Origin: a virus
Taxonomy: Duplodnaviria > Caudoviricetes
Length of the DNA: 63,879 nucleotides
IMG/VR virus record: IMGVR_UViG_3300044971_001666
Location: 1-63,879 of that record
Direction: 5' to 3' (one strand)
The notes under the pieces: model-generated
Told to the model about the DNA's origin: nothing
What the model saw: only the letters and a program-made list of their open reading frames with translations
The model's database searches: none
Made by a program: the position numbers and the translations under genes
Shown here: positions 24,901-63,879 of the stretch, one piece after another
Numbering within the stretch: the stretch's first letter is position 1
How the letters are laid out: every line of letters begins with the position of its first letter

Positions 24901-27900
24901 TTGGAAACAAAAAATAGGAAACGAATTTACAGAAGTAGCAAAATCAGTACAAGATAATGCACAAGCAAAGTTTGACGAACAAAATAAAACCCAATTAGAA
25001 AATGGAATTAATAAAACGGAATCGAAGGAATCAAAGCCCATCACTATTCAGAGAGGAAAAGAGGCTGACAAAGAAGGAGCAAATGCAAATGCTCGTAATG
25101 AAGCAAAAAGAGAGGAAATTAAATCAGCCTTTAAAAAGCTAAGAGATGAAGGATTGCTTAAAACGGCAGATAAAACATTAATAGGTAAGGCTAAAAGAGT
25201 TTTAGGCATTAAATCTGCGCCTATGTCTGACGCTGAAATTGATGTTCAAATGGCATTGATAGACGCTATGGCTGATGTTTGGAAGAAAACAACTGGCAAG
25301 GATAACTTTTACGAAACATTTATTGCAGACGTTAAAAAAGGGAACTTAGCTGAACTGCAAAAAATTGGCGGTGTGTTATTTCAAGATACAGAAAACACAA
25401 AAAGACCAACAACAAGGGTTACGCTTGCTGTTTTTGACGCAACTCAATTTGAAAAAATGAAAGGGCAGCAAGTAGCACCACAAGCTATTTCTGATTTAGT
25501 AAAAGGTCGTGGAAAACAAATTGAGAAAGATATTATTAACATGGTTCTTGGATATGATAAATATAAAGGACAAAAACGTATTTCTTTTGACGAATTTAGA
25601 AGTGATGTAGAAACACAAATAATGAAGTTAGAAAAAATCCGCACAGATTCTTACGCTAATTATGGTTATGACAACTTGGGCGATAATGAAAACTACGGAG
25701 AAAGAGAAACTGTAATATTTAATTCGCCTATTGAACATGGAGAAAAAGGACATTTTAGCGGTGATTTTACAACGGAAGGGTTAGACAAAACAGAGTGGGA
25801 ATTAAAGCAAATCCCTAATACAGACAAGTGGGCTGCAATGGATAAAAATATGCCTTCTAACGTAACAGCAGATAACGTTGCAGAATATGTTGGAACAGCA
25901 GGAGAAAAAGCAGAGGTAGAAAAGTGGATTGCCGATAGAGATAAAGAAAGTATTGGAGGTCTTAATAAAGGACTATTTGGACATATTAGAAAATGGTTTA
26001 ATAAGAGTGATGGAATATTTCATATAGCCGAACTACAATCTGATTATTATCAGAAAAATAAAGCAAGTGATTTATTAAAACCCGAAGTAGGACAAGATGA
26101 AATTGATGCTTACATGAACAAAAACGTGTGGCAGCCAATGGATAGAGAAATTTCAAGAAAAATAAAAGAACAATTTGGAATTACTGTTAAGAAGTTTGAT
26201 GATAAGTTTATTGCCTACGATAAAGAAGGTAGACCATTAAGCGAAGTAGAATTAAAAGAAGAACCGTTAGTTGGACTAAATGTAGGCGACTTTGAAGAAA
26301 ATGCAGTTGTAGTTTATGCACTTAAAAGCCTATCAGAACGTAGGGTTAATGATGAAAAATTAGAAAATGGAACATATAAAGGTACTCTTAATACGTCAAA
26401 AGATGGCGGAAAAATTGATACTGTTATTTTAAATACTGAAAAAGAAGTAGAGGATTTCGCCAAAGCAAATGATGGAAGACTTAATGGCTCAGAAGATAGT
26501 TATAATGTTATAAGAGAAAACTACCACGAAGAAAGAAAAAAACTAAGACAAACCGAAGAACAAAAATTTATACAAAAGCGTCAAGCAGAGTTAGAAAAAA
26601 CAAAACCAACTAATATACAGCTTAAACAATTTGTAGCTTCACAGAAAGTACATGAATTGAGGTTGCTAAGAGAAGCAATTAAAATGGCAGCAGACGAAGG
26701 TGCTGAAACAGTAAGATTTCCTGACCAATATACACTTGCTGTTATTGAGGGATATACTGATGCAACAGGACAAGGTAACACGCCATACGAAGTAGTTAAT
26801 GGAGATTCTGATAGATTATATGAAGGCGACATGATTGATTATGGTGGAGAAAATATGACTGTTGTAGAACAAAACAGAGATACAATAACAGTTGTTCCAA
26901 GTGATGAAGTTTCAATTTACAATCTTTACGATTTAATTAATGACGAAACAGATGATAGAGTTAGAGAAATAGAATATGAAGCAAAACGTCATTTTGGGGA
27001 TATGGAAGCTATTACAAAAGAAGATGTAGAAAGCTATGAACCTGACGAATGGATGGGAGCAGAAGCAAAATCATTATTAGAGGAATATTTTGAGCAAAAT
27101 GAAGAAGAAGAAACTGTAAGTTGGAAAGAAATAAAAAATGGATTATACGATAGTATAAATTCAAATTATAGCGAAATGAGTGTTGATGATATTCTTGGTT
27201 GGAGTGGAACTGTATGGCAAGATGGTGATACTATTTATGCAATTGAGGGTAGAAACTATGAAACATTTAATCAGCCCGATGGGTACGAAGAATCTTCAAC
27301 AAAAGAAGATTACTACGATAATTTAAGTAGCGACCAAAAAACAGTAGTTGATAAATACGGAGAATTAGGCAAGCAATTTGAAAAAATGCGCCCCGATGCA
27401 AGACTTATTCAAGACGAAAATGGAATGGGATGGTACGAAACAACTATAACAGAAGAAGACAAGAATAACCCTATTGTAGCATTTCAAGAAGAAGGTGGAA
27501 AAGTAAAAGGTGCTATTGACTTTACTAATAATAACAAAGCTACACTATATGTTTTTGATGGAGCAGATATATCTACACTTGCACATGAAATGAGCGGACA
27601 TTTAGGGCGTAGAGTGTTAGAAAAATTAGCAGAAGCAAGCCCCGAATTTGCTAAAAAATACGAAGCAGTTAAAAAATGGGCAGGAGTAAAAGATGTTTGG
27701 ACTACAAAAGCAGAAGAAAAATTTGCAAGAGGATTTGAAAGATATTTAAGAGATGGCGTAGCCCCAACAAAAGCATTAAAAGAAGTTTTTAGTAAACTGA
27801 AAGAATGGCTTAGTGGTATTTATAAAATTATAAAGGGCAGTTCAATTGATGTAAAATTAACTAACGATGTAAGAAATGTATTTGATTCATTATTAGGCAA

Positions 27901-30900
27901 AGAACAAGTAGAACAAAAGCCTACAACAGCCGAAAAAGTAGCTAAAGCCGAAAAAAGCATTAACGACATTCGTAACAAACTAAAAGAAAAATTCAAAGTA
28001 AACTTACCCGAAGGAACACAAACCAAAGGATTTACAATGAACGAATTAATTGATGTAATAGCTGATACTGCAATACAAATAGCTAAAACAGGAATTGAAA
28101 TAAACGAAGCAATAAAACAAGCTATTCAATATTTAAAAGAAGAAGGCGATTTAGAAGACTTTGACGAAACCGAAATTTTTGATAAAGCCAAAGAAGCGGT
28201 AAGTACCACCGAAGCAGCAATAGTAAAAGACCCTATTTTAAAGCGTATAAACAAAGCATTTTTAAAGATAGGTACTGAAATACTTGACAATGCCGAAGCG
28301 TTAATGGCTAAAGCAGCAAGCATAGTTGGCGATGTAAGGAAAAACGTAACAGCAGGATTTGAAACAAGGGATGGCAAACCTATTGGCTTCACTTACGATA
28401 CAGACCAAGTAGCAAGAGAAAGGTTTGACTTCTCTAAATTAAAACAAATAGGCAAAGGAAGTGACAGAACTGTTTTTGATTTAGGTAATGGAAGAGTGCT
28501 TAAAGTTGCTCATACAGCAAGAGGATTAGAGCAAAATATTTACGAAGGAGATTACCTTTTAAAAGGGATTATTCCAGAAGTTTTTGAAAGAGGGCTTAAT
28601 TATGTTGTTGTAGAAAACACTCCAAGACTAAAAGCAGCCGACAAAGTAATTACTTACGACTACGAAACAGGCGAAGAAAATGGCACAACAACAGCAGGAG
28701 ATATGTTAAGGCAGCTAGGTCAGTTTAATCAGTCGCATTTTGAAAAGCATAATGATAACCTACTTAGAATACTTGGAAAGTTTGGATTTAGCGATATAAT
28801 GTCTTATGACGTTTTGTTTGGCGATTTTACTGCAATAAGAAATTGGGGGTATAAAGACGGAATGGCGGTGCATTTAGACGGAGGTACTTTTGGTGGCGTA
28901 AGAATGCTCACTAATCATAAAAATAAAGCACCTTTAAGCGACCCAGAATTTAGGGAGATTTACAATAAGAGTAAGCAGTTAAAAAAACAATTTGGAGATA
29001 CTGATAAAAACACTAGGTTCAATATTACAATGCCTAATGGTAGCCAAGTAACGGTTAAGCCATTTGAATCAAATAGCGAGGATAAAAACAACGCCCTTAT
29101 AAGAGAAAACAATATAGAAGGCAAGTTACTTAACAAGCAAGAATCGGAAAGTCTTCAAAAGGAAATTGAATCTAAATACCAAATAGAAGGTCAGCCTAAA
29201 TTTGGACAAGAAAATGAAGATATTAGAACAAATTTATTTAACTACGAAAATCCGATAGCAGAAAAAGATGTAAATGGAGTTAATTTAAGAATTGCAGAAG
29301 GATTAATAGAGGGAGAAAAATTTTCTGGCAATAGAAAAAAAACCTTTTTACTGTACGCAGATGGTAAAATAGTTGGTAAGTTTTATTCTGTTGAAGATGC
29401 TAAAAAAGTTGTAAAGTTTATTGAGCAAAATCTAATTAATCAAAAAACACTACTCCCACAAGGTCAACCCTTATTTCAATTAAACGACAAAGGAGAAATA
29501 CTTGGCTTTACTCATAACGGTAAAATATACTTAAACGGAGAAAAAATAACAGCTAATACCACAATGGAAGAGGCTGGACATATTTGGATTAATTGGGCTA
29601 AAGAAAACCGTTCAGACTTATACAAACAAGGCATTGAGAAGGTATTAGGAAGCAAATATTTAATCGAAGTAAACAATAACCCTAACTACCAAGCAGAAGC
29701 CCTTAAAGCAGGGGAAAAAGGCAGCGAAGCGTATAATGCTTATATGCAAGAAGAAGCATTAGCAAAAGCAATAGCTGATAATGGTGCTAAGTTTATTACA
29801 GAAACAAGAAAAGCTAATTTCAGAGAGTGGGTAACTGCAATGTGGAAAGAAGTTGTAAAAGCCTTCGGAATACAGAACTTATCACCTAATCAAGTTAAAA
29901 AACTAACTTTAGAGCAATTTGCTAAAATGGCTGCTGCCGATGTGTTCAAGAAAGAATCGGTTATGACTGATAAGGAGAAAGCAACTGCTAAAGTAGAAAT
30001 ATTAGACGCTGACCAAAAAATGTTAGTTGACGATATTACCATTGCTGAAAATGACGAAGAAACTATACAAGGCGTAAAAGGCTTTATAGATTCTATGAAT
30101 AGAGCAAAAGGGCTTACTCAAGAAGAGAAAGACGCAATGAATGAGCGTTTGGGTAGGAACTATGAAGTATTATCAAATGAAAAACTTGAACTAATTGGTA
30201 AAACTATTATTGAAGAATTAGGTGGACTAGACAAGGCATTATTAGAAGCGCAAAACGCTAAATCTGATTTATTGCCTTACATGAAAACCTTTATTCTAGG
30301 TCAAGCAATACTTGAGAATAAGAAATTAGAACAAAACGCTGCAACCCAAGAAGCCAAAAATAAATATGCCGACATTCAAATAGATTTGTTTGATAAACTA
30401 GACAACCTTTCAAGGGATTTTGGTAGAGCAATTCAATACTTAAATAAACTTTACAGCAAAAGCGCATTAGCGGTAACTAGAAAAGCTAAAAAGATTTTAG
30501 CTGATAGAAATGGTGCGAACCAAATTGAAGCCGAACAAGCAGCCGATAAAATAGAAGCAGCAATATTTGAAGATGATAATACAGATTCAGCAAACGAAGC
30601 CTTACAAGACCTTTTAAATAACGAAAAGGAAAAAGTAAAAGAGTTAGAAGCTGCTTACGAAAAACTTAAAAAACAAATTGCTAATCCAACCGAACCAAGA
30701 CCTAATAATCCTAAAAGAGATTTAGGCTCAAGTAAGGATAAAAAAGCAACTATAAAAAGACTTAAAGAAACCAAGTACAATGCGAATAGACAAAACATAA
30801 TTCCTATTGCACCTCCTAAACTAATGGAAGATTTAAATGATTTGACATTAGAATACATGGAAGAAGGATTTTATGATTTTGAGGACATTCAGAAAAAACT

Positions 30901-33900
30901 TAAAAAAGATTTAGGTGGATTACACTCTGATTATTACGCAGAAGCATACGAACAATCGAAAGAAAAAGCAGTAAGTAAAGGAGTAAAAGAAAGCGAATTT
31001 ACACCAACCGAGCAAGTAAATACTATTTTAGATAAGCAACGTGAAACAAGTGATGCTGCTAAACTAGCGAAAGCAAGCGAGAGGTTAGCGAAAGCACAAA
31101 TTGAAAAGGTAAAACAAGCACTATCAACAGATGCTAATAAAAAATCGTTCAAGGAAAGACTTAAAAACCTAATACCTAAATCGGGAAACATTTGGCTTAA
31201 ATATCAAGAAAGCAATGTAAATTCATTGGTAGCTAAACTAAATGCAACTGCAAGTAAAAATGAATCTCCTTTATTGGCTGAATTTTCAAAATTGGTTACT
31301 CAAAATATAAACGAGAAACTAAATGAGTTAATGCCTAAAGGAAACAATGTAAGCCAAGAAAAAAATAAATCGTTAGAACTTGCTGACATTATTAAGAACG
31401 AAGAAAAGTTTGCAGAAATTTACGAAAAGGCACTTACTAAAATTAAGGAACAAAATAAAGATAACCCAAAAGCAATTTCTTTATTAGAAAACCTTTTAGA
31501 ACAAAACGACTTAGGAAAACCATTTAGCAAAAAAGCTATCTCAAATGCTATTGAACAAAAAATAAAACAAACCAAACAAAGCATTGACGATGTAATTATC
31601 GAAGGAGAAGAAAGTATATTAGCATTTAAACAAAAGATTGTAGATAGTATTTTAAAAGATGCCGAACTAGACACAGAAGTAGAAGCGGAAATTAAAGATA
31701 GGATTGAGTTTGAAGTTGATAATTTGTTCAACACACAAGCAAAAAATCACTACAAAACCACAGCGCAAAGAATTGTTAATGATGCTAAGTCAATGGCAGA
31801 TTTACCTACTACTAAAAAAGAAGCAAAGGTAATAAGCCAATTAATTAGTAAAGTAGCTTCAATGGCAAAGGATACCATGATAAACAAAAAACAAGTGGTT
31901 GGTAAAACACCACTTGAATTAATGGAATTTGCTTTAAAAAATGCTGAAATAGGTAGAAAAATATTTACAGAAGCACAAAAAGAAGTTCAAGACATTATAA
32001 AGAATGACGAAAACTTAACAGCCCAAGAAAAAGCTGATTTAAAACAGTTTTTAGAAAATTATCAAAAGTCAATATTTGATGCGCTTCTTACCAATAAAAA
32101 TAAGGACTTAATAATAAAAGAAGCCCTAGTAAAATTAGGTTACGCAACACAAGATAGTAAAGGAAATATAGTAGCTGATTTAGGGAAAATTGCATTAAGC
32201 AAAAACACTCCTAAAGAAGCAATTGAAAAAGTTAAAGAAGCGATAAGTAATGAGTTAGGTTTAGACCCTAGCGAAATTGACGACTTACTAGCTGCTTTAG
32301 AAACAAGATTTAATGAACTTATTCAAGCTAAAAAAGAAGCTAAAATAAACGCTGTTGTAAAAGCAAACGATAGATACAAAGCAGCTACACAATTTTCAAA
32401 CAAAGCTAGGAAAGATAAAATACGTTCACTAATTGAACTTTACAATGCGGGTGGTTTAACAAACGATAAGATTTTAGAAAAAATGGCTCGTGATTTAGGT
32501 ATTATAGCCTTTACGGATAACGACCAAAAGATTATTGAAGACTTGTTACAGCGTATTGATAATGCGGGTTTAGGTTTTGTTAGTGCGGGTTTAGAAGAAG
32601 AACTACAAGCATACTTTGAACATATAGGCGGTACTTTTGCCATGAAAGAAATGTTTGAGCGTTGGAGAGCAAGATTACTTTCGGGCTTTATTACAACGGG
32701 CAAAAACTTAACAGGCTTCTTTGATACGGGCTTTATGATTGGACACCAATTAATAGATTCCAATATGAACATGGGTTTGTTGAAAGGTAATGTTGACTTA
32801 AATATTTTAAAAGTAATTAGACAAGCCAATAGAATTGGAGGAACACTAGCCTTAGAAAGTTTAGTAAATGGAAGTGTTGATAACGGAAGTGCTTTTGCCG
32901 AACAAACTGGTCAAAAAGAAGGAACACCAAGCGTAAGGTTTTTAGAATTTCAAAAATATCACAACTATTGGACACCTGATTTACCCGTAACCGTAAAAGG
33001 CGTAACATTTAACTTAAACCCAATAAACGCCTTAAAGAAAAACGAAAAATACGTTCAAAGGGTTTTAGGTGCAACTGATAGTGTAAACCATACTATTTTG
33101 CAAGAAATGAAATCATACACTTTTATAAAAAGAGTGGTAATGAGAGGTAGCCCCGAAATGAGTGCGAAAGAGGCTGCGAAAGTGGCTTATGAAATTATGT
33201 ATTACTTAGACATTACAGAAGCAACAATAGCTGCATCTGAAATGTATAAAGAACAAGGTTTAGACATAGATAAAAACAAAAGAGCTTTTAATAAACTGGT
33301 TTACAAACTAGCACAAGACCATACTTTATTTAGGGCTTTAAGAAAAGCGACTGATGAATTTAAAAAATCAAACATTGAATATACTTCAAAAAGCGGGAAA
33401 CTAAAATTAAACAGAAGAATAAATGAGATTGCTCAACAAACAAGAGCAGACGATGTTATAAAAGCTGCTACTGAATTTGCTTCGAGATATACTTATAAAC
33501 AATCTGATATGGGTGTGTTTCCTTTAGTAGCCAACTTAATTAAATATGTAAAAGACGTATTTCCATTAATGGCAGCAAGGATTAGAAAGAATGCAAAAGG
33601 CACAGCGTATTCAAAACAAGCTAATAAAATAGCAAATGGTATTGAAATAAGTGGAGAACTATTATTTACAAGTACAATGCCTTTTATAAATGGTGTGGCG
33701 AATATTCTTGAAAAAGGATTAGAGTTTAACCCTATTTACGGTGGAATAAAATCAGCAACTTACTTAGGACTAGCTTTAAATGCTAATAACAAAAAAGATA
33801 CAACAAAAGCAAGAGAACTTTCAGCAAAAAGCGGTGAAGTTATTTACAGAGTAGCGGTTGGAATGTTATTAATGGCACTTTTACAATCACTAGCAGACGA

Positions 33901-35086
33901 TGACGAAGCAGACGATGAAAAAGCAATTTACGGACAAGGAGATAAGAACTTTAATAGAAACAAAGTTATAGAAACTGTTCGCCCTCAAAATACCATAAGA
34001 ATAGGTGGGCGTGATATTTCATTCGATTTCTTTGGAACACTAGCAACTGAAATAAAAATACAGTCAATTGCAATGGACTTAAAAAGATACGCTGATAAAG
34101 AAATTACTAATACTCAATATATGGGTATGGTTTATAATCAAATTATAAGTTCATCATTCACAAAAGGACTTTCGGATATTGCAACCGCAGCTTCAAGTAC
34201 AGCCCAAACAGGTAAATTAGCTACTTATTTTGAGAAAAAAACAGCCGAGCTATCTACTAGAGTAGTTTTACCATTTACAAGTTTTGCTAGACAAGCGGGG
34301 CAAGTAGCAGAACCCGAAGCTAAAAAAGCAATTGGTTTAAAAGAAAATATAATTAAACAAGCGGGCGTTGGTGGTTGGCTGTTAAACAGACCGAACCTAG
34401 ATTATAGAGGAAGAACTTACGATACGGGCGAACTTTATACAAGTAGTGCTAGTGGCGCAATGAATTTATTTGGAAGTAGAGTAAATAAAGACCCTATTGA
34501 TATTTGGGTTTTAAAAGCTGCAAACAATAATTTAGGAGTTAGCGACATCAAAAAAGATAGTGATAAATTTTATTTAGTTGACAATCCCGATGGAACTTCT
34601 CGCCCAATGACTGACGAAGAAACTTATGATGTTTCAGCAGAAGCAGCTAGAATATTTAATGGTTTATTGGTTGACTACTATAATAAAGAAAAGAACAATC
34701 CTATTACTAAAACAAGTCAAGAGCAAGTTGCGAAAGATTTAAGCGAAAGACATAACGAAGCTAAAAAAGCATCGTTTAGAAAATTATTTAAAGGCAGTAA
34801 AAACGAGGACAAATATTTAGAAGATAAATTTGATTGGCTTAAAAAAGACGAAGGCAAAGAAACTGAAATCAAAAGAGCAGCCGATGATATTGCTAATAAA
34901 GTTAGTGAAGAAACAAAAGCATTGCGTGATAGATTACCTAAAGACAAATACGACAAACAAATATTTTTAGCTAAAATGCTTCGCTCAATAGTAAACAAAA
35001 CTACCACCTTAAAACAATGGAAAGAAGCGGGCATTATTGAAAGCGTAGAGAAAGAAGGACAAGAGATATTGAAATTGTCAAAATAA
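21914..35086 (+). CDS. giant polyvalent virion (ejection) protein, 4390 aa
   Basis: Gly/Ala membrane-like segments, HEMSGH zincin-like motif, ELQSD motif, kinase-like segment, long coiled coils. Confidence 0.8.
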   Translation: MPVEKDYIGGLHGYLKENFGDDFKLTTEQFKSKLSTDSAYANQLHGYLKENFGEGFKLDIADFQNKVGYIDPSKKKQNSSPNFATTLQEAITPLPSGVQKPLESSSPLASNLKSVATEKPIDAKTALLQKANQEQNLSNPLEGTTQTDVFIEENRKPTVLNMAKSINNKSQERVKVLTERVGLLKGIKDFEAQIPKIQESAQQLSDIVKDPTQPITSRQAAQEQLKLYQDQFDQFENAVNNYKGLIDKEKSIITDIHKDEDLRQKGLERDYNSITAFVDAIKSSTIKVGAGGAGMFNTLGLSGDPEDTNSENNEQVQNEVRNNVQTIKKFGESLVTQETPKNFEKIFEGDFSTKKLKYILAQGIGQTIPTVAAGFLGGAGGATIAGAGLGFIESKDMFKAAGLNEKQSDWAAFGLAIPLGALDEYGISDIITKPIGKLILKETTEDVIKTLAKKELTNEAIFETVKKTLGEKIKEYSIDVAKAGWKEPLTEMEQALLSEGAKQATEEITGKDSNANQTLSEYFKQTALKIAEEGVYGLAGGVGLSAVTSAIQNRTTPSAYQRAMELKNPELLQDFTEQLDSEVQSGRLTTEQAQIALENVKKIQELDGKIPNTIKDIDKRSMAASLVGVKDELKLEIEGKDETLVQPLKDEIKNIDQTLLDIAQNKPIEEIENGLNEQETSMSEIPTNQEQKIETPQETKTTTTPSSDNSSEVAALGSVEVPKTLSQLKISDEITQTLENKLKGLESERTNKLIENKGKGKFDDRLKDEIEEVKRNIYKRENELASRRNSDLESKIKDGSLLKLISENKITAEDARGLIIESGMEIPSEIQSIVDKNKQDKKENKQSIIERDTDFLGNEKEAYMVNNDKANGIRTQEDIDYYKANVKRAIESGKYEKSVKEGRMTANDARIIVESYGLKVPKTLETLLKTEQTNEPTPIEATIPTSNKGTQTAEPTKQDGEAKVESKPIALPKENDVVTLEVPNRLPIKMAFKDGVWKQKIGNEFTEVAKSVQDNAQAKFDEQNKTQLENGINKTESKESKPITIQRGKEADKEGANANARNEAKREEIKSAFKKLRDEGLLKTADKTLIGKAKRVLGIKSAPMSDAEIDVQMALIDAMADVWKKTTGKDNFYETFIADVKKGNLAELQKIGGVLFQDTENTKRPTTRVTLAVFDATQFEKMKGQQVAPQAISDLVKGRGKQIEKDIINMVLGYDKYKGQKRISFDEFRSDVETQIMKLEKIRTDSYANYGYDNLGDNENYGERETVIFNSPIEHGEKGHFSGDFTTEGLDKTEWELKQIPNTDKWAAMDKNMPSNVTADNVAEYVGTAGEKAEVEKWIADRDKESIGGLNKGLFGHIRKWFNKSDGIFHIAELQSDYYQKNKASDLLKPEVGQDEIDAYMNKNVWQPMDREISRKIKEQFGITVKKFDDKFIAYDKEGRPLSEVELKEEPLVGLNVGDFEENAVVVYALKSLSERRVNDEKLENGTYKGTLNTSKDGGKIDTVILNTEKEVEDFAKANDGRLNGSEDSYNVIRENYHEERKKLRQTEEQKFIQKRQAELEKTKPTNIQLKQFVASQKVHELRLLREAIKMAADEGAETVRFPDQYTLAVIEGYTDATGQGNTPYEVVNGDSDRLYEGDMIDYGGENMTVVEQNRDTITVVPSDEVSIYNLYDLINDETDDRVREIEYEAKRHFGDMEAITKEDVESYEPDEWMGAEAKSLLEEYFEQNEEEETVSWKEIKNGLYDSINSNYSEMSVDDILGWSGTVWQDGDTIYAIEGRNYETFNQPDGYEESSTKEDYYDNLSSDQKTVVDKYGELGKQFEKMRPDARLIQDENGMGWYETTITEEDKNNPIVAFQEEGGKVKGAIDFTNNNKATLYVFDGADISTLAHEMSGHLGRRVLEKLAEASPEFAKKYEAVKKWAGVKDVWTTKAEEKFARGFERYLRDGVAPTKALKEVFSKLKEWLSGIYKIIKGSSIDVKLTNDVRNVFDSLLGKEQVEQKPTTAEKVAKAEKSINDIRNKLKEKFKVNLPEGTQTKGFTMNELIDVIADTAIQIAKTGIEINEAIKQAIQYLKEEGDLEDFDETEIFDKAKEAVSTTEAAIVKDPILKRINKAFLKIGTEILDNAEALMAKAASIVGDVRKNVTAGFETRDGKPIGFTYDTDQVARERFDFSKLKQIGKGSDRTVFDLGNGRVLKVAHTARGLEQNIYEGDYLLKGIIPEVFERGLNYVVVENTPRLKAADKVITYDYETGEENGTTTAGDMLRQLGQFNQSHFEKHNDNLLRILGKFGFSDIMSYDVLFGDFTAIRNWGYKDGMAVHLDGGTFGGVRMLTNHKNKAPLSDPEFREIYNKSKQLKKQFGDTDKNTRFNITMPNGSQVTVKPFESNSEDKNNALIRENNIEGKLLNKQESESLQKEIESKYQIEGQPKFGQENEDIRTNLFNYENPIAEKDVNGVNLRIAEGLIEGEKFSGNRKKTFLLYADGKIVGKFYSVEDAKKVVKFIEQNLINQKTLLPQGQPLFQLNDKGEILGFTHNGKIYLNGEKITANTTMEEAGHIWINWAKENRSDLYKQGIEKVLGSKYLIEVNNNPNYQAEALKAGEKGSEAYNAYMQEEALAKAIADNGAKFITETRKANFREWVTAMWKEVVKAFGIQNLSPNQVKKLTLEQFAKMAAADVFKKESVMTDKEKATAKVEILDADQKMLVDDITIAENDEETIQGVKGFIDSMNRAKGLTQEEKDAMNERLGRNYEVLSNEKLELIGKTIIEELGGLDKALLEAQNAKSDLLPYMKTFILGQAILENKKLEQNAATQEAKNKYADIQIDLFDKLDNLSRDFGRAIQYLNKLYSKSALAVTRKAKKILADRNGANQIEAEQAADKIEAAIFEDDNTDSANEALQDLLNNEKEKVKELEAAYEKLKKQIANPTEPRPNNPKRDLGSSKDKKATIKRLKETKYNANRQNIIPIAPPKLMEDLNDLTLEYMEEGFYDFEDIQKKLKKDLGGLHSDYYAEAYEQSKEKAVSKGVKESEFTPTEQVNTILDKQRETSDAAKLAKASERLAKAQIEKVKQALSTDANKKSFKERLKNLIPKSGNIWLKYQESNVNSLVAKLNATASKNESPLLAEFSKLVTQNINEKLNELMPKGNNVSQEKNKSLELADIIKNEEKFAEIYEKALTKIKEQNKDNPKAISLLENLLEQNDLGKPFSKKAISNAIEQKIKQTKQSIDDVIIEGEESILAFKQKIVDSILKDAELDTEVEAEIKDRIEFEVDNLFNTQAKNHYKTTAQRIVNDAKSMADLPTTKKEAKVISQLISKVASMAKDTMINKKQVVGKTPLELMEFALKNAEIGRKIFTEAQKEVQDIIKNDENLTAQEKADLKQFLENYQKSIFDALLTNKNKDLIIKEALVKLGYATQDSKGNIVADLGKIALSKNTPKEAIEKVKEAISNELGLDPSEIDDLLAALETRFNELIQAKKEAKINAVVKANDRYKAATQFSNKARKDKIRSLIELYNAGGLTNDKILEKMARDLGIIAFTDNDQKIIEDLLQRIDNAGLGFVSAGLEEELQAYFEHIGGTFAMKEMFERWRARLLSGFITTGKNLTGFFDTGFMIGHQLIDSNMNMGLLKGNVDLNILKVIRQANRIGGTLALESLVNGSVDNGSAFAEQTGQKEGTPSVRFLEFQKYHNYWTPDLPVTVKGVTFNLNPINALKKNEKYVQRVLGATDSVNHTILQEMKSYTFIKRVVMRGSPEMSAKEAAKVAYEIMYYLDITEATIAASEMYKEQGLDIDKNKRAFNKLVYKLAQDHTLFRALRKATDEFKKSNIEYTSKSGKLKLNRRINEIAQQTRADDVIKAATEFASRYTYKQSDMGVFPLVANLIKYVKDVFPLMAARIRKNAKGTAYSKQANKIANGIEISGELLFTSTMPFINGVANILEKGLEFNPIYGGIKSATYLGLALNANNKKDTTKARELSAKSGEVIYRVAVGMLLMALLQSLADDDEADDEKAIYGQGDKNFNRNKVIETVRPQNTIRIGGRDISFDFFGTLATEIKIQSIAMDLKRYADKEITNTQYMGMVYNQIISSSFTKGLSDIATAASSTAQTGKLATYFEKKTAELSTRVVLPFTSFARQAGQVAEPEAKKAIGLKENIIKQAGVGGWLLNRPNLDYRGRTYDTGELYTSSASGAMNLFGSRVNKDPIDIWVLKAANNNLGVSDIKKDSDKFYLVDNPDGTSRPMTDEETYDVSAEAARIFNGLLVDYYNKEKNNPITKTSQEQVAKDLSERHNEAKKASFRKLFKGSKNEDKYLEDKFDWLKKDEGKETEIKRAADDIANKVSEETKALRDRLPKDKYDKQIFLAKMLRSIVNKTTTLKQWKEAGIIESVEKEGQEILKLSK

Positions 35087-38069: not shown

Positions 38070-38753
38070 TCATGCTTTTATGTGTTGGTAAATAGTTTTA
38101 AGCGTATAATTAATGCTGTTTTCATTCAGCTTCACCTTAATATCTTTTGCAGCCATTCCATTTTTAGCATAGGCTTTGATTAGTTCTACTCCGATTGGTG
38201 AAGTAGGTTTGTAGGTACGGTTTTTTGCAACTAGAGCCATTTGTTTTTTAGCATACTCTTTATCTTGCATAAGAGGACTACCTAGAGAAGTAATTGTATT
38301 CCCTTTTTTGGTAACGTAAACCTTATCTTTTTTAAGTCTATTTTTTATAGAGTTCAATCCATTAACGGTTCTTTCGGAAATCATTTCACGCTCCCTTTGT
38401 GCCATAGCTGCAAATAAATTTATTGTAAAGCCATCACATTCAGGCATATCCGAACATATAAACTTAACCTTACTTTCCATGAGTGAACTAATAAAGTAAA
38501 CATTTCTCGAAAGTCTATCCAGTTTAGCCACAACTAAAGTAGCGTTATGTAGCTTACACATATTTATAGCTTCTAAAAGCATGGGTCTATTATTCTTTTT
38601 GCCCGATTCTATTTCGGTAAAAGACTTAATTACAATACCACTATCTGTTATCTGCTTCACAGCCTTTTCTTGCGCTTCTAAACCAAGTCCGCTTTGACCC
38701 TGTTCTTTAGTAGAAACTCTTTTATAAGCCACATATTTTTCATCGTTTTGCAT
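38070..38753 (-). CDS. small serine recombinase (resolvase/invertase family)
   Basis: YVAYKRVST.EQ..SGLGLEAQ, ESGK..NRP, LVVAKLDRLSR, ERE.ISERT. Confidence 0.93.
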   Translation of the reverse strand: MQNDEKYVAYKRVSTKEQGQSGLGLEAQEKAVKQITDSGIVIKSFTEIESGKKNNRPMLLEAINMCKLHNATLVVAKLDRLSRNVYFISSLMESKVKFICSDMPECDGFTINLFAAMAQREREMISERTVNGLNSIKNRLKKDKVYVTKKGNTITSLGSPLMQDKEYAKKQMALVAKNRTYKPTSPIGVELIKAYAKNGMAAKDIKVKLNENSINYTLKTIYQHIKA

Positions 38754-40677: not shown

Positions 40678-40708
40678 AATGAAAAATAAATTGTCAAAGC
40701 GAAACGAG

Positions 40709-40739
40709 AAGCCCGCCTTTTGCTTATGTGCTGTTATAT
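40709..40739. repeat. half attC-like site (one arm plus core)
   Basis: AAGCCCGCCTTTTGCTTATGTGCT-GTTATAT resembles the right arm of 41655..41787; no partner arm upstream. Confidence 0.65.
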
Positions 40740-40808
40740 GAAGTGCCGACTTATTTACGATAAAGCCCAATTGGAACACTAAACAGAAAAACAAAAAGAA
40801 AAAAAGCG

Positions 40809-41072
40809 ATGGGAAATTTAAAACAAAAATTAAGTAAATACCAAAATCCAACTTTGATAAACGGGACTATTTATTACAATGTTCCTGAAAATGTATTGGA
40901 TAATTTAGAAAACGACAAGTGGGAACACTTTACGGATAAAAAATACCCTGAAAATGATTGTGATATTGTTGTTTTTAGCAACAAGAAACACAAATATTAC
41001 ATTGAACATACGGATAGTGAATTTTGGGAAAGATGTATTAATAGAAACTATATAAAATGGATGAAATTATGA
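40809..41072 (+). CDS. hypothetical cassette protein
   Basis: ORF starting right after the inner inverted repeat. Confidence 0.65.
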   Translation: MGNLKQKLSKYQNPTLINGTIYYNVPENVLDNLENDKWEHFTDKKYPENDCDIVVFSNKKHKYYIEHTDSEFWERCINRNYIKWMKL

Positions 41073-41323
41073 AACAACAAACAGCAGTAGAATGGTTAGT
41101 AGAACAACTAACTCCTTCAATATCGTTACAACAAAAACATATTGATGAATTAAAAGAGAAAGCTAAAGAAATGGAGAAAGGTCAAATAGTTGATGCAGGG
41201 GTTTTTACATTTCAACTAACTGATAAAACGCCTTACGGAATGGAATATCTAAGCAAACTTGATAATGCAATTTCAAATGCGGTGTATTATTATGATGAAA
41301 CTTATAACAAACAAAATAAATAA
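41069..41323 (+). CDS. hypothetical cassette protein (QTAVEWL-type small phage protein)
   Basis: MKQQTAVEWL...AKEMEK.QI...YYDETY. Confidence 0.7.
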   Translation: MKQQTAVEWLVEQLTPSISLQQKHIDELKEKAKEMEKGQIVDAGVFTFQLTDKTPYGMEYLSKLDNAISNAVYYYDETYNKQNK

Positions 41324-41324
41324 A

Positions 41325-41582
41325 ATGGAAACAAGTAAAGAATTAAAAACACCTACACAACACATGATGATATGGGTGTTGCAAAACTTTGAAAAAGAGT
41401 TGGAAAACGATATTGATAAAGACAAGTCGCTTGATGAAATATTTGATGAAACACTAACTTTTGAGCAACGAAAAATGAAAGAGTTTTTTGTAGCAGGAAT
41501 ATTTAAAGGTAAACAGAATATAGATTTTGACTTAGATGAAGAATTTAAAAAGTTTTACTCAAAATTATTCCCCGAAGAATAA
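41325..41582 (+). CDS. hypothetical cassette protein
   Basis: METSKELK start just after previous stop. Confidence 0.6.
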   Translation: METSKELKTPTQHMMIWVLQNFEKELENDIDKDKSLDEIFDETLTFEQRKMKEFFVAGIFKGKQNIDFDLDEEFKKFYSKLFPEE

Positions 41583-41654
41583 AAGTGCGGTGGCTTTTTT
41601 CTTTTTGTTTTTCCTTCACGGAACTTCAATTGGAAACGGTAAGCAAGGCATTTC

Positions 41655-41787
41655 ATATAACGTTTTGCAGCTACCAGAAGGGCGGGATTTTAACAACAAA
41701 ATAAATTTAAAAAGATGAATTATAATTTAACCACAAATGCTTCTAACGAAGCCGAAAGCCCCGCCTTTTTGGTAGGTGCTGTTAGCA
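41655..41787. repeat. attC-like site
   Basis: ATATAAC-gtttt-GCAGCTACCAGAAGGGCGGG...CCCGCCTTTTTGGTAGGTGC-t-GTTAGCA. Confidence 0.8.
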
Positions 41788-42644
41788 GTAGTGCCTTTCT
41801 CGAATTAAAATAAAACTTCTGGGCGGAGTTATAAAACCCAATAAAAACAAAATGAATAATTTAAAAAATGAACCAATGGTGAAGCATAGTAACCAAGTTC
41901 ACACAACAACAGATTACTTTCTATTTAACCCAATAGAAGGTAACAGAAACAAAAACTTGTTACACATTAACAGATTAAAAAAATCAATGGCAGAAAACTA
42001 TTTATTTACGGTTATTATCGTAAATGAAAAGCATGAAATTATTGATGGGCAACACAGGTTTGATGTAATTCAAGATTTAAAACTACCGTTGAATTATATT
42101 ATTTGTAAAGGTTATGGATTAAACGAAGTTCACATTTTAAACCAAAACTCTAAAACATGGAACGCTGATGACTATTTAACTGGATATTGCCAGTTAGGTT
42201 ATGAGCATTACATTGAGTATGCAAAGTTTAAATCTAAATTTGGATTTGGGCATAATGAATGTATGCTATTGCTTGGCGGGTCTGATACGGGACATTCAAT
42301 AAAAGAGTTCTATTGTGGTGAATTTAAGATAAAGGATTACAATAAAGCACTTGAAAAAGCCACAAAAATAACAATGATAGGAAAGTATTATGATGGCTAT
42401 AAAAAATCTTCTTTTGTTAGAACTATCGCTCAAATTTTAGATAAGCCTGTTTTTGATTTTACTCAATTTATGCAGAAATTAAGAATACAGCCAACGGCAT
42501 TGCAGGACTGTTCAAATAACGAACAATACAAGCTATTGATTGAGGAAATTTACAATTACAGAACAAGAGAAAAGGTTAATCTTAGATACTAGTTTAATTG
42601 CGGGGTGTCAGTCGGCTTGCGGGTCGGCTGGCATTACTGCTAAC
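41781..42644 (+). mobile_element. gene cassette A2 (ParB-like gene)
   Basis: ends GTTAGCAGTAGTGCC (41781-95) and GGCATTACTGCTAAC (42630-44), 14/15 inverted match. Confidence 0.8.
41852..42592 (+). CDS. ParB/Srx-like N-terminal domain protein
   Basis: GNR...INRLKKSM...IIVNE...IIDGQHR. Confidence 0.8.
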   Translation: MNNLKNEPMVKHSNQVHTTTDYFLFNPIEGNRNKNLLHINRLKKSMAENYLFTVIIVNEKHEIIDGQHRFDVIQDLKLPLNYIICKGYGLNEVHILNQNSKTWNADDYLTGYCQLGYEHYIEYAKFKSKFGFGHNECMLLLGGSDTGHSIKEFYCGEFKIKDYNKALEKATKITMIGKYYDGYKKSSFVRTIAQILDKPVFDFTQFMQKLRIQPTALQDCSNNEQYKLLIEEIYNYRTREKVNLRY

Positions 42645-42711
42645 GGGTCGCAGATACACGCTGTGAGCGTTGGATTGAGGGAGGGAAAATAGCGTGTATG
42701 TGCTGTTATAC
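42638..42711. repeat. attC-like site
   Basis: TGCTAAC-gggtc-GCAGATACACGCT...AGCGTGTATGTGC-t-GTTATAC. Confidence 0.8.
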
Positions 42712-43040
42712 GCTGCCTTTATTACTAATTTAATTTAAAAACAAAAATATGAACGCAAAAGAAAAAGCAAAAGAGTTAATCGAAAAATATCAAAAAATTG
42801 ATATTGAAATAGGTGGTCAATATGATGGCTACCTTACAATGAAAATACACGATGCCAAACAATGTGCTTTGATAGCAGTTGAAGAAATACTAAATGCAAG
42901 ACCATTAGACCCTAATTATGTAGATTGGGATGATTGTGGGGCAGCACACCAATATTGGTATGAAGCACAAAAAGAGGAAGCACTTGAATTTTGGAATAAT
43001 GTCAAATCGGAGTTGCAGTCTTTGTAAGGTTGCGTATAAC
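42705..43040 (+). mobile_element. gene cassette A3
   Basis: ends GTTATACGCTGCCTT (42705-19) and AAGGTTGCGTATAAC (43026-40), 13/15 inverted match. Confidence 0.8.
42749..43027 (+). CDS. hypothetical cassette protein
   Basis: stop codon overlaps cassette end; paralog at 37236..37436. Confidence 0.75.
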   Translation: MNAKEKAKELIEKYQKIDIEIGGQYDGYLTMKIHDAKQCALIAVEEILNARPLDPNYVDWDDCGAAHQYWYEAQKEEALEFWNNVKSELQSL

Positions 43041-43059
43041 TACTGTATAACTGCAACAA
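43037..43059 (-). other. candidate attI-like terminal site of array 1
   Basis: - strand reads TTGTT-GCAGTTATACAGTA-GTTA; same layout as 62021..62043. Confidence 0.5.
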
Positions 43060-43074
43060 AAAGGATAAATAAAT

Positions 43075-60845: not shown

Positions 60846-61073
60846 TTATTCCGTCCAATATGTTACGGTAACATCAATACTTGCACCCATTTCAAATGCG
60901 ATTTTATCTCCAATATAACCACGATAAATATTAATCATTGTATCGCTGCTTATTTGTTTTGATTCTTCCTTAATAACATCAACTTTATATTGAAGTATTA
61001 CTGCGGGATTGGTAGAAAAAAATACACTATTATCTCCAAATCCTTTTTCTACTGATTTTATTTTATTTTCCAT
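60846..61073 (-). CDS. hypothetical protein
   Basis: ORF in operon. Confidence 0.6.
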   Translation of the reverse strand: MENKIKSVEKGFGDNSVFFSTNPAVILQYKVDVIKEESKQISSDTMINIYRGYIGDKIAFEMGASIDVTVTYWTE

Positions 61074-61163
61074 ATTTTTATCTAATTATTGTTTGAACTA
61101 TGTAAAACATAAACACAGCTAATATAGCGATGTATCCTAAAATTTGCAATGCTTTTTTCATAG

Positions 61164-61562
61164 TTATTGTTCGTTTAAAAGTTCGGGATTTTCGTAAATA
61201 TTACCAACAACAATACAACTATCTGTAAGGTAGCTGTCAAATGGAATGATTTTATTATGTGATTTTATTTCAGCATGAAAAGCAGCGTGAATTTCATCTC
61301 CATAATCATTGCAATTTTTGTTGATATAATATACTTTGCAAGTTAGTCTTTCTCCAACCTTCATAATATCGCCATCATAAATAGGATTTCCTTTTCTATC
61401 TGACACGCCAGTAAATTGCATTAATTCAAAATGCTCAATATTTTTTGGCTCGTTTAAATTGTCTTCGTAATCTATTTCTTCGGTATCTAGCAATAACATA
61501 GTAACTTTTACCATTTGTTTGTACTGCTTATCCCACGCTCTAAATTTTGGTATGTTTTTCAT
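61164..61562 (-). CDS. YopX family protein
   Basis: KFRAWD...LMQFTG..D.KG.PIYDGDI...VVGNIYENPELL. Confidence 0.92.
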   Translation of the reverse strand: MKNIPKFRAWDKQYKQMVKVTMLLLDTEEIDYEDNLNEPKNIEHFELMQFTGVSDRKGNPIYDGDIMKVGERLTCKVYYINKNCNDYGDEIHAAFHAEIKSHNKIIPFDSYLTDSCIVVGNIYENPELLNEQ

Positions 61563-61726
61563 TATTCAATAGGGGTTTTTTGTGATTTAATTAATTTAAC
61601 TTGACTAGCTATGTAGTCAATACACTTTTCGTAAATACGAGGGTCAACTCTTCGTGCTATACGCTTTGTTGGTAATTCGTTTTTGTTGCGCCCTAGTTTT
61701 GTTTTGGGGGTTGGTTTATTTTTCAT
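61562..61726 (-). CDS. small basic protein, possibly DNA-binding (not in ORF track)
   Basis: manual translation MKNKPTPKTKLGRNKNELPTKRIARRVDPRIYEKCIDYIASQVKLIKSQKTPIE. Confidence 0.5.
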   Translation of the reverse strand: MKNKPTPKTKLGRNKNELPTKRIARRVDPRIYEKCIDYIASQVKLIKSQKTPIE

Positions 61727-61728
61727 GT

Positions 61729-62019
61729 TTAAAAAGGTAATATTTGTATGTTTTTTATAAAAGTTTCTATTTTGTTTTTTCTATTTGCTTTTAGCCATGT
61801 TAAACTTTTTGGCTTAGTGTTTATCTTAGCGACCTTACATCTACCACTCATATAGGTTGATACTGGTTTTAAATTGCTGTTTATTTTCTTGTAAACCTCA
61901 TTGCCACTAAAAACATAATCTGTGTTCGGTAAATAATGAGTTATAATTACAAAATCACAACTCATTATTCTTTCTGTCGGTATAGCCGAAATGCTTGTTA
62001 TTGTTGGTTGTATTACCAT
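61729..62019 (-). CDS. small basic array-adjacent protein ending in LPF
   Basis: YVF...LKPVS...K..SL...LPF; resembles 43075..43305. Confidence 0.7.
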   Translation of the reverse strand: MVIQPTITSISAIPTERIMSCDFVIITHYLPNTDYVFSGNEVYKKINSNLKPVSTYMSGRCKVAKINTKPKSLTWLKANRKNKIETFIKNIQILPF

Positions 62020-62020
62020 G

Positions 62021-62043
62021 TTGTTTCGCCAATCTACGAGTTA
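62021..62043 (+). other. candidate attI-like terminal site of array 2
   Basis: TTGTT-TCGCCAATCTACGA-GTTA. Confidence 0.5.
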
Positions 62044-63276
62044 CTTGCAAGTGGGCGGACGTGTTCTATATTAAGCATTCGTTTCAAAACTTTTTAAAAA
62101 ATTAGCCCCACCCGCTTCGGTTTTTTCAAAACCGTTTAGTTTAGACAGCCATTGCTCATAAATTTCATCCGCTATCCTTGCAGTCATTATAGGTGGCACA
62201 CTCATTCCAACCAAATAAATCACTTTGTTTGTTTTAAAATCATAGTCCATTGGATAGCTACCCGCTTTTTTTATTGCATCATCTGAAATATGTTGTGGTG
62301 TTTCAAAATCTATAAATTTGCCATTAGCTGTTATGGTATTTAAACTGCTGTTATGTTTTACCAGTATTGCATTAAAATCAGATAACAAACCACGTTCCCT
62401 TGCATTTATATCACCCAAATTTGTATCACTATCTATTTTTTTGCCCCATAGCATTTGTTGGTGTTCTGTTAATGGCTTGCCTAATTTGTCGGCAAATTCA
62501 CCATAAAAAATTTCGGGTTCTTTAAATGTCAATTCCAATTTTGGAACTACTGTAAACATATCAGCATTATACAAAAAAGGTTCTGCCAAATCCTTTCTCA
62601 TTGCAACAAAAAACACTCTTTCTCTGCGTTGTGGCACACCCATTTTTGAAGCATCCAGTAACCAATGTTGGCAGTAATAACCAGCCAAATCAAATTCCCT
62701 ATAAATTTGCCTTACATATTGCTTTGCTTCACCTAATAACAATCCTTTTACATTTTCAGCTACTACCACTTTTGGTTGCAGTTTTTTAGCCAAATCGATA
62801 AAATCAAAAAACAAAGTGTCCAATACTTGTTCAGCTTGTCCCTCTCTAAATACTTTGTCTTTGCCCCAATCTTTTTCACGATTACCTGCCATTGAAAAAC
62901 TGCTACAAGGTGGCGAACCATCCAAAATATCTAAATTGTAAAGTTCATCAGGCAAATCAGTTCTTAATTTAAAGGTCTGTATTGGCTCTAAATAAGCATA
63001 TTTTGGATTATGGTTAGCTTTGTATGCTTCAATCATTTTCGGGTCAATCTCATTGCACCCTAATACATCAAATCCAGCTAATTTATAACCCATTGTTGAT
63101 CCACCGCCACAAGCAAAACAACTAAATACTTTGCCTTTGTCTTTTGTAAATACTGCATCTTTTAAAGTCCAGTTGTAATTGTAAGTTTTTTTTGCCATCG
63201 CTTCGCTAATTTTTTAAAAAGTTTTGTTTAGTATTTCAATTAAAGTTTTGTGCTGAAAATCCCACCAGCAAGTAAC
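62040..63276 (-). mobile_element. gene cassette B1 (DNA methyltransferase)
   Basis: ends GTTACTTGCAAGTGGG (62040-55) and CCCACCAGCAAGTAAC (63261-76), 14/16; inner perfect 22-nt inverted repeat. Confidence 0.8.
62071..63198 (-). CDS. DNA (cytosine-5)-methyltransferase
   Basis: FACGGG (motif I), DGSPPC (IV), ENVKG (VI), QRRERVF (VIII), GMSVPP (X). Confidence 0.95.
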   Translation of the reverse strand: MAKKTYNYNWTLKDAVFTKDKGKVFSCFACGGGSTMGYKLAGFDVLGCNEIDPKMIEAYKANHNPKYAYLEPIQTFKLRTDLPDELYNLDILDGSPPCSSFSMAGNREKDWGKDKVFREGQAEQVLDTLFFDFIDLAKKLQPKVVVAENVKGLLLGEAKQYVRQIYREFDLAGYYCQHWLLDASKMGVPQRRERVFFVAMRKDLAEPFLYNADMFTVVPKLELTFKEPEIFYGEFADKLGKPLTEHQQMLWGKKIDSDTNLGDINARERGLLSDFNAILVKHNSSLNTITANGKFIDFETPQHISDDAIKKAGSYPMDYDFKTNKVIYLVGMSVPPIMTARIADEIYEQWLSKLNGFEKTEAGGANFLKSFETNA

Positions 63277-63360
63277 AAGGCATTGGCAAAAGCGGCTGAC
63301 AAGTTCCTGCATAAATCAAGCGGTTTCCAAGCCGCCTTCGCCAATGCCCAACCGTTAGCG
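63270..63360. repeat. attC-like site
   Basis: AAGTAAC-aa-GGCATTGGCAAAAGCGGCT...AGCCGCCTTCGCCAATGCC-caacc-GTTAGCG. Confidence 0.85.
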
Positions 63361-63797
63361 GTCATTCTAAACCGACACCCGATACAATCCTTTTTCATTG
63401 GGTTTTAAATCTACATTAAAGATAAATGACGACTTCCCAGTTTTTAATAAATCGAAAGTATCATCAAAGAAATTCATTAAATCCTTTGACGAAAAACGCA
63501 ATGTATGTGGGTCTTTTCGTTTTAAAATAAACGCATCATCTTCATCATCTTTTAAGACATAAGCCGTTTTTGCTTTTTGATTAAATCCAAACATTAAACC
63601 ATCATTATCATCAACATTTAAAGCCTTTGCGACAATATCGCTAACAATAAACCGACCGTTTTTTAACTCCAGTTTTATTACTGGTTTTTTAAATGTTCTC
63701 AATTGTGAATGAGAACTTCGCTTTACAAATACTATTTCTTCCATTTTTTGATATATTTTTATATTAATTTATGAGATAAAAAGAACGAACCGCTAAC
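63354..63797 (-). mobile_element. gene cassette B2
   Basis: ends GTTAGCGGT (63354-62) and ACCGCTAAC (63789-97), perfect inverted match. Confidence 0.8.
63367..63744 (-). CDS. hypothetical cassette protein
   Basis: 125 aa ORF whose stop overlaps the cassette end. Confidence 0.75.
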   Translation of the reverse strand: MEEIVFVKRSSHSQLRTFKKPVIKLELKNGRFIVSDIVAKALNVDDNDGLMFGFNQKAKTAYVLKDDEDDAFILKRKDPHTLRFSSKDLMNFFDDTFDLLKTGKSSFIFNVDLKPNEKGLYRVSV

Positions 63798-63879
63798 ACG
63801 GGTTTGGCAAAAGTGGGCAGAAACATTCTGCTAAAATTGAACATCATACAAGCCCACCTTCGCCAAGCCCGAAAACGTT
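63791..63879. repeat. attC-like site cut by the window end
   Basis: CGCTAAC-a-CGGGTTTGGCAAAAGTGGGC...GCCCACCTTCGCCAAGCCCG-aaaac-GTT(end). Confidence 0.85.

Follow-up and report, generated by a model that had tools for sequence, protein, structure and literature searches.

An integron-like cassette array at the end of a crAss-like phage contig, probably moved by a compact Xer-type recombinase in trans

How do gene cassettes bounded by hairpins come to stand at the very end of a phage contig, and what moves them? The question is raised by positions 62021-63879 of the IMG/VR virus record IMGVR_UViG_3300044971_001666, the whole of which (63,879 nt, hereafter the window) was analysed. The locus comprises a docking site, a cassette with a C5 cytosine DNA methyltransferase gene (B1) and a second cassette (B2) that runs into the contig end, each cassette carrying an attC-like hairpin (hairpins 1 and 2; Table 1). 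The phage encodes a Crassvirus muzzle protein (107.9 bits) and ring protein 2 as well as YopX, ERF and NinG; judged by these matches it is a crAss-like phage, and the public runs that contain it carry lake-water metagenome labels. The array is real and of integron type, with population-level evidence for gain or loss of the methyltransferase cassette. We hold with good, though by no means complete, confidence that the phage, crAss-like and with a Bacteroidota host, has here one end of an integron-like array of cassettes, probably moved by a compact Xer-type recombinase supplied in trans.

Both cassettes have the self-complementary ends that a preliminary description of the sequence had claimed for them. 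B1 opens with GTTACTTGC at 62040 and its inverse box ends at 63276, positions 62040-62055 and 63261-63276 being complementary over 16 nt at 88%. B2 opens with GTTAGCGG at 63354 and its inverse box ends at 63797, and here the 9 nt from 63354 are perfectly complementary (9/9) to the 9 nt ending at 63797. The arms of hairpin 1 (63279-63297 and 63330-63348) extend over 19 nt with 89% complementarity, and both hairpins contain the arm motifs GGC-AAAAG and CTTC-GCC that the same description had named. R1, a covariance model built from an alignment of 76 such hairpins, places the two sites at 63263-63363 and 63784-63879, both on the + strand and 521 nt apart, with scores of 78.4 bits for site 1 and 83.8 bits for site 2, each site being itself part of the R1 seed. 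Site 2 is the commonest viral hairpin type.

The gene of B1 matches PF00145 over its full length and above the curated cut-off (146 vs 22 bits). Its reading frame is bracketed inside the cassette by a perfect 22-nt inverted repeat, which is retained in the two further copies of B1 described below and has nothing resembling it in B2; it may extend the folded site outward or serve in a regulatory pairing. The 125-aa open reading frame (ORF) of B2 has no Pfam family and no PHROGs family, and in the Atlas it falls in hypothetical clusters only, mostly viral, with scores of 0.91-0.92. ORF96, the first backbone gene past the docking site, found no match in Pfam or PHROGs either, and PHROGs returned nothing for four large ORFs of the window.

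Table 1. Positions of the features discussed (numbering of the 63,879-nt window)
Feature	Position	Strand	Basis
First array, ending at a second docking site past 43041	40681-43041	-	R1 hits, complementary cassette ends
ORF96, first backbone gene past the docking site	61729-62019	-	95% aa identity in L247; no family
Docking site (attI-like half-site) between array and ORF96	62021-62040	-	Sequence; kept in L247; metagenome joint at 62039
Cassette B1 (methyltransferase gene and hairpin 1)	62041-63354	+	Whole copies in L007 and L115; X1 contig 62039-63357
C5 cytosine DNA methyltransferase, 375 aa	62071-63198	-	PF00145, 146 bits, E 2.4e-42, profile positions 2-323/324
Perfect 22-nt inverted repeat, left arm	62085-62106		Repeat search
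Perfect 22-nt inverted repeat, right arm, just upstream of the methyltransferase start codon	63205-63226		Repeat search
attC-like site 1: left box ending TAAC 63261-63276, stem-loop 63279-63348, right box starting GTTA 63354	63261-63360	+	Inverted repeats, folding, alignment
Cassette B2 (125-aa gene and hairpin 2), truncated by the contig end at GTT of the right box	63355-63879	+	Sequence; 460-letter contig over 63354-63813 in X1, X2, X3
125-aa ORF, no family assigned	63367-63744	-	Pfam, PHROGs, Atlas
attC-like site 2: left box ending TAAC at 63797, stem-loop 63799-63871, GTT 63877-63879	63784-63879	+	Folding, alignment

B1 is a discrete mobile unit. Two further viral contigs carry complete copies of it (L007, 94.7% over 1332 nt; L115, 94.4% over 1320 nt), homology beginning each time at window 62039/62040 and stopping just past hairpin 1. 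The neighbours of B1, left and right, are all different across the three contexts. Hairpin 1 accompanies the methyltransferase side in all three. A cassette is thus content plus hairpin, and the full cassettes take in their own hairpins, B1 running from about 62041 to 63354 and B2 from about 63355 to the contig end, with the crossover of B1 somewhere inside GTTA at 62040-62043 and 63354-63357. Because the hairpin belongs to the methyltransferase cassette, it is located 5' of the gene on the coding strand. Two other ways of drawing the unit were rejected: a crossover on the AAC side of the hairpin is ruled out by the constant company of hairpin 1 and the methyltransferase side (3/3), and a miniature inverted-repeat transposable element or other transposon by the lack of target duplications and by flanks that pair across the cassette rather than across the hairpin.

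The insertion point is equally well defined. On the gene strand, the docking site reads TAAC, 7 nt, TTGGCGAA and the ORF96 start codon, and it resembles one hairpin arm. In a related phage (L247, record G011), ORF96 is 95% identical at the amino acid level and the flank 92% identical at the nucleotide level; homology with the window ends at window 62050, and L247 keeps the docking sequence, but next to a different cassette. At this same docking site, L247/G011 has at least 12 hairpins over 21982-28457, and its cassettes include two N6-type methyltransferases, judged from sequence. At the docking site of the first array of the window (43030-43060) and at the L007 junction left of B1, the crossover TAAC is repeated 7 nt on (TAAC-N7-TAAC), the place of the second TAAC being taken by the TTGGCGAA arm in the docking site before ORF96.

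The preliminary description had the same system occurring twice in one genome, and a second array does lie at 40681-43041. R1 finds minus-strand sites there at 41654-41794 (31.8 bits), 42635-42718 (18.4 bits) and 40681-40746 (10.5 bits, degenerate), bounding the cassettes M1 (three small ORFs), M2 (246 aa) and M3 (92 aa), whose genes are on the + strand and whose ends are complementary at 14/15, 14/15 and 11/13 positions. Hairpin sites and complementary cassette ends together place the system in this genome twice, on opposite strands.

Gain or loss of B1 is visible in public metagenomes, where contigs from four runs (X1-X4) were aligned to window 61700-63879. Pieces with 0-1 mismatches connect the backbone to 62043 in X1, X2 and X3, and continue through B1 and B2 to 63813 in X1 and X2, X3 being without B1. 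One contig each of X1, X2 and X3 holds a joint from 62039 to 63354 that skips 1314 nt, exactly B1, the docking site and the hairpin 1 end having 4 letters (GTTA) in common. Additionally, an X1 contig of 1319 letters covers exactly 62039-63357. Depth gaps were counted as evidence of absence in X3 alone, in combination with the joint; there the backbone has a depth of 13.3 and B2 of 7.1, with zero cover over 62065-62794. Furthermore, one X1 contig passes from hairpin 1 into 26 letters that are the reverse complement of 43011-43036, the start of M3. X4 contained only methyltransferase relatives of 90-95% at high depth and no backbone, and no conclusion was drawn from it. Subject to the short side of the joint, the metagenomes thus appear to hold versions of the phage with and without the methyltransferase cassette, the joint that lacks it being seen in three runs.

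The hairpins belong, by their sequence, to a large family in Bacteroidota and Bacteroidota phages. With a 20-base arm pattern, at least 118 matching stretches came from viruses and at least 120 from genomes. Among the matches listed with full flanks (n=234), a rule on AAC/GTT flanks gave 144 family members and 90 non-members, the rule being rough and missing some true members. The alignment (n=76) took in the two hairpins of the window and, from the matches listed, 38 of the 102 distinct ones in viruses and every one of the 36 distinct ones in genomes. Compensatory changes were found in 10 of 18 consensus pairs, and the AAC and GTT boxes are retained, AAC and G-T being invariant or nearly so; GTTAGCG matches the core consensus GTTRRRY only in part. 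Near-identical 63-nt hairpins were found in many contigs, many contigs bearing family hairpins end in or near them, and large arrays of co-oriented hairpins exist elsewhere, one virus record of 169.7 kb (G006) having 34 hairpin hits over 78.9-114.9 kb. As single-stranded DNA, hairpins 1 and 2 are predicted to fold better than shuffled sequences, with z of -4.1/-4.4 and -3.1/-2.9 (+/- strand), and on the minus strand two conserved A-C mismatches turn into G-T pairs, making the stem continuous. No bulged (extrahelical) bases were seen in the folds or the alignment; what the stems do have is the pair of conserved A-C mismatches, on one strand, and a spacer of unequal length (1-2 vs 5-6 nt). An Rfam scan of 61000-63879 gave chance-level matches only, and BLAST of 63255-63879 against 50,697 phage records gave a single weak match of 86 nt. 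The arm-pattern matches, the covariation, the recurrence of B1 at the same edges and the second array make the observation more than chance.

Two side observations concern the family. In L246 (270-400) and L247 (3126-3261), two N6-type methyltransferase genes start in the hairpin loop and run through its 3' arm, the recombination site thus being coding sequence as well; both begin MIDRITEQPFCQTRV. A contig (L126) in a metagenome-assembled genome (MAG) titled Nitrosotalea has six viral-type hairpins with antisense genes; it probably derives from a phage and was binned with an archaeal MAG, rather than being an archaeal array.

The candidate for the moving enzyme comes from arrays elsewhere. In G006, a tyrosine recombinase gene lies directly after the last array cassette, and in two Bacteroidota MAG contigs a recombinase gene heads the array. 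In recombinase-bearing phages this gene occupies the position of ORF96; here ORF96 itself holds the docking-site end of the array, where no recombinase gene was found. The three array-adjacent recombinases (two bacterial, one phage) have NF040815 as best match, with 206-216 bits against a cut-off of 220; their matches to the integron-integrase model TIGR02249 are confined to two stretches and fall below the cut-off. In alignment to IntI4 (2a3v), residues 186-247 (62 residues) stand opposite only 19 residues, whereas alignment to XerA (5hxy) is continuous with an E of 1.7e-40; the IntI-specific insert was not found in any of the three array-linked enzymes tested. By these comparisons, the linked recombinase is a compact Xer-type enzyme lacking the integron-integrase insert. 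The phage enzyme is 38% identical to one of the bacterial enzymes, and of the relatives scored 1538 reach E <= 1e-30 with it, most of them 266-276 aa long.

The link between enzyme and hairpin extends to many viruses. A relative search with a single protein gave 3 loci, and an alignment-based search then gave 80 viral loci. R1 made 54 hits in 33 of these, all upstream of the recombinase gene and in one relative orientation, and none in a downstream flank of equal length. Roughly one in four of the 80 loci (L254-L332) has no more than ~1 kb between the start of the recombinase gene and a contig end, which fits upstream arrays breaking assemblies. The preliminary description had suggested looking for an intI beyond 63879. 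The polarity in the recombinase loci points the other way, to the position of ORF96, and no recombinase was found in the contig or in the record of its relative; apart from this location, the earlier interpretation is supported.

Orientation is the feature in which the phage arrays are flipped, namely in the direction of transcription relative to the hairpin. In both window cassettes the gene is on the minus strand, antisense to its site; the integron arrangement, with the gene co-directional with and upstream of its site, was seen in neither (0/2). In 26 array loci chosen by eye, each interval between hairpins was represented by its longest ORF. Of the 84 viral intervals, 79 have this ORF antisense to the hairpin; of the 31 genome intervals, 20 have it sense and 11 antisense, and these 11 come from four contigs with viral-type hairpins, 10 of them from three small ones. 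Hence phage arrays have the hairpin 5' of the gene, the reverse of bacterial arrays, with transcription toward the docking site. In the three arrays examined that have an adjacent recombinase, the recombinase gene is on the same side by hairpin polarity. Classical integrons also include a minority of inverted cassettes.

Taken together, the proposed mechanism would run as follows. A cassette would consist of a gene and a recombination site in the form of a folded hairpin, the hairpins presumably folding as single-stranded DNA. Cassettes would be cut and joined at the GTTA adjoining the hairpin, and would enter at a fixed docking site directly before ORF96, B1 being the one next to that site. 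The mover is most likely a compact Xer-type tyrosine recombinase of ~270 aa without the integron-integrase insert and, being absent from the contig, it would act in trans, from the host or from a co-infecting phage. The C5 methyltransferase likely shields the phage DNA from host restriction enzymes, and the contig would end in hairpin 2 as a repeat of high copy number that has many alternative neighbours within the sample. A wider reading, to which we give about an even chance, is that the array represents a separate integron analogue common in Bacteroidota phages, among them crAss-like phages, defined by the compact Xer-type recombinase, sequence-conserved hairpins, a half-hairpin docking site and cassettes with the hairpin before the gene, here without its own recombinase yet reshuffled in nature between two docking sites. 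No description of a hairpin-cassette system with a Xer-type recombinase was found in the literature searched, which takes in few of the subscription journals.

Integrons are the textbook gene-capture device of bacteria, and the insert of their integrase is considered essential. The array points to a parallel system with a simpler recombinase, residing largely in phages. Such a system would widen what counts as an integron, would explain the hypervariable accessory regions of crAss-like and other Bacteroidota phages, and would supply the means by which methyltransferases and other counter-defence genes are rapidly exchanged; if it holds, anti-restriction genes would be a pooled resource for co-infecting phages and hosts. 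To this the window adds a case in which gain or loss of a named cassette is visible in public metagenomes.

The contig end is accounted for by the same repeats. As the window spans the complete record, which is of linear class with a completeness estimated at 54% in IMG/VR, position 63879 is a genuine contig end and not an arbitrary cut, and the GTT at which the sequence had been noted to stop is present at 63877-63879. Contig pieces of runs X1-X4 terminate at each hairpin. The summed depth in the bin of hairpin 2 is 180.7 (X1), 110.4 (X2), 262.6 (X3) and 167.7 (X4), that of the phage 5-16. Past 63879, the sole exact-match piece across hairpin 2, of 78 letters in X1, stops after 4 letters, and the remaining pieces over hairpin 2 have 3-5 mismatches and diverge into other DNA. 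Since hairpin 2 is shared and has many alternative neighbours, the contig breaks there, at a branch of the assembly graph. An assembly break caused by cassette heterogeneity, as first proposed, is borne out in that the B1-less form coexists with the B1 form; the repeated hairpin contributes too, and the contigs cannot separate the two causes. High-copy hairpins also explain why such phage genomes break in assembly at these sites. Beyond the array region, on its far side, G011 shows synteny with the window from 6961 down to 2, which suggests that window position 63879 and position 1 flank a single gap, the corresponding complete interval in G011 being 12.8 kb.

Two further ORFs of the window may be recorded. 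One ORF of 4390 aa spans 21914-35086 (+), and the G011 contig ends apparently fall in this part of the genome. Another, of 1041 aa at 6784-9909 (+), has LAGLIDADG_3 and Hom_end homing-endonuclease matches at residues 370-449 and may contain an intein or an inserted endonuclease.

Several points weigh against the proposed mechanism. The evidence is sequence comparison, and recombination events were not directly observed. No match to PF00589 was found in the contig or in the records of L247, L007 and L115 (0/4 records), which leaves no enzyme tied to the phage in question. In 47 of the 80 recombinase loci R1 has no hit, many of these having short upstream flanks or distant recombinases. Moreover, R1 is biased to one type of hairpin and arm motif because it was seeded from an exact-pattern search, and the orientation count depends on loci picked by eye and on the longest-ORF rule. 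On the population side, the shorter side of the B1-less joint has only 24-26 letters, placed at 90% likeness, and joints of this kind can arise from repeats or other organisms; the link between hairpin 1 and M3 is one contig with 26 letters; and X1 is possibly the source sample, hence not independent. Additionally, the actor may be a classical integrase, as IntI1 recombines the hairpin of Polaribacter phage P12002L according to the available text of Qi et al. 2023 (PMC9892861).

This last point leads to the explanation that survives best among the alternatives, although it is unlikely: a conventional integron remnant, or cluster of attC sites lacking integrases (CALIN), whose ordinary attC sites are moved by a classical integron integrase of the host. 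The locus shows features of a CALIN, with two attC-type sites that stand close together in one orientation, an imperfect palindrome with AAC/GTT boxes, and complementary cassette ends; the adjacent integrase with IntI insert that marks a complete integron is missing, with no PF00589 match in the contig. Phage CALINs are also on record. As far as its accessible text goes, Qi et al. 2023 (PMC9892861) counted 17 CALINs across 10,705 genomes of phages, with some methyltransferase cassettes in them, and saw 5 of the 6 phage attC sites tested recombined by IntI1, the P12002L hairpin included. In P12002L, R1 gives two weak hits (17.6 and 14.3 bits), between and beside methyltransferase genes and antisense to them. 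That phage (L249) has three annotated methyltransferase genes in a row on the minus strand at 29248-32126, with short AAC...GTT hairpins between the first two (29998-30062) and just past the third (32213-32287), a layout as in the window.

Against a CALIN stand the missing IntI insert in 3/3 array-side recombinases tested (two bacterial, one phage), the unbulged stems with their two conserved A-C mismatches and uneven spacer, and the genes antisense to the site in both window cassettes and in most viral intervals. In integrons, extrahelical bases in the folded attC stem set the choice of strand. Furthermore, Bacteroidota are not among the 11 taxa for which Ghaly et al. 2021 built attC models, to judge from the available part of that paper. 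Few integrons in Bacteroidetes were reported with IntegronFinder 2.0. The insert itself is described by Smyshlyaev et al. 2021, in the text at hand, as essential yet not fully conserved in their subgroup.

It is very improbable that the hairpins are regulatory RNA or terminator-like repeats and that the genes were shuffled by homologous recombination between repeats, as happens with the promoter-stem-loop cassettes of T4-type phages. The hairpins are intergenic, their coding-strand stem is fully paired with G-U pairs, and near-identical copies recur across many contigs, all of which would suit such a role. This explanation leaves the complementarity of a cassette's own two ends and the 54/54 polarity with a tyrosine recombinase gene unaccounted for; there is no T-run after the stems, and the 4 letters shared at the B1-less joint are too short for homologous exchange.

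The phage also has a resolvase-type serine recombinase of its own at 38070-38753 (-) (PF00239, 82 bits), ~2 kb before the first array, and no tyrosine recombinase in the contig. That this enzyme moves the cassettes is, for all its proximity, hardly probable: arrays elsewhere adjoin tyrosine recombinases, and no link between serine recombinases and hairpins was seen, no test having been aimed at one. For serine recombinases the site is double-stranded and the crossover 2 bp long, a mode of action that leaves covarying stems unexplained. Finally, a chimeric contig end made from repeats of other organisms, to which the high copy number of hairpin 2 and the many family contigs ending in or near hairpins might point, is extremely improbable given the 0-1 mismatch pieces that link the backbone to the array (X1-X3) and run on through both cassettes (X1, X2), and given the related phage L247/G011, assembled through the same junction.

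The integron-like array with a compact recombinase acting in trans may lastly be set beside known systems. The CALINs of virulent phages in the accessible text of Qi et al. 2023 (PMC9892861) are alike in having co-oriented phage hairpins that bound accessory genes, methyltransferases included, with no integrase nearby. They differ in that their sites were handled as classical attC and tested with IntI1; the same portion of the paper is without a dedicated insert-less recombinase, a hairpin family of conserved sequence, a docking site or within-population variants. Integrase-driven cassette insertion outside att sites, which the part of Loot et al. (10.1101/2022.09.11.507474) at hand describes, offers a route for cassettes into a genome without its own integron. 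Here two related phages have cassettes at one and the same docking site, and this site is similar to a hairpin arm; it is therefore no random secondary site.

Xer enzymes resolve chromosome dimers at dif. The XerA-type recombinases (NF040815; PDB 5hxy, 4a8e) are the best sequence matches of the array-linked recombinases, which are unlike that family in scoring just below the cut-off of 220 and in having their gene placed at the end of phage hairpin arrays. With classical integrons, including the sedentary chromosomal ones and their uniform attC sites, the system shares the cassette logic, the G|TT crossover, the complementary cassette ends, the folded imperfect palindrome, insertion beside a docking site near a recombinase gene, and arrays of tens of cassettes. 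It is unlike them in that its recombinase, that of the hairpin family, has no IntI-specific insert, its stems are unbulged, its arm sequence is conserved across phyla-level hosts and phages, and its phage genes are antisense to the site, with the hairpin preceding the gene and transcription directed toward the docking site.

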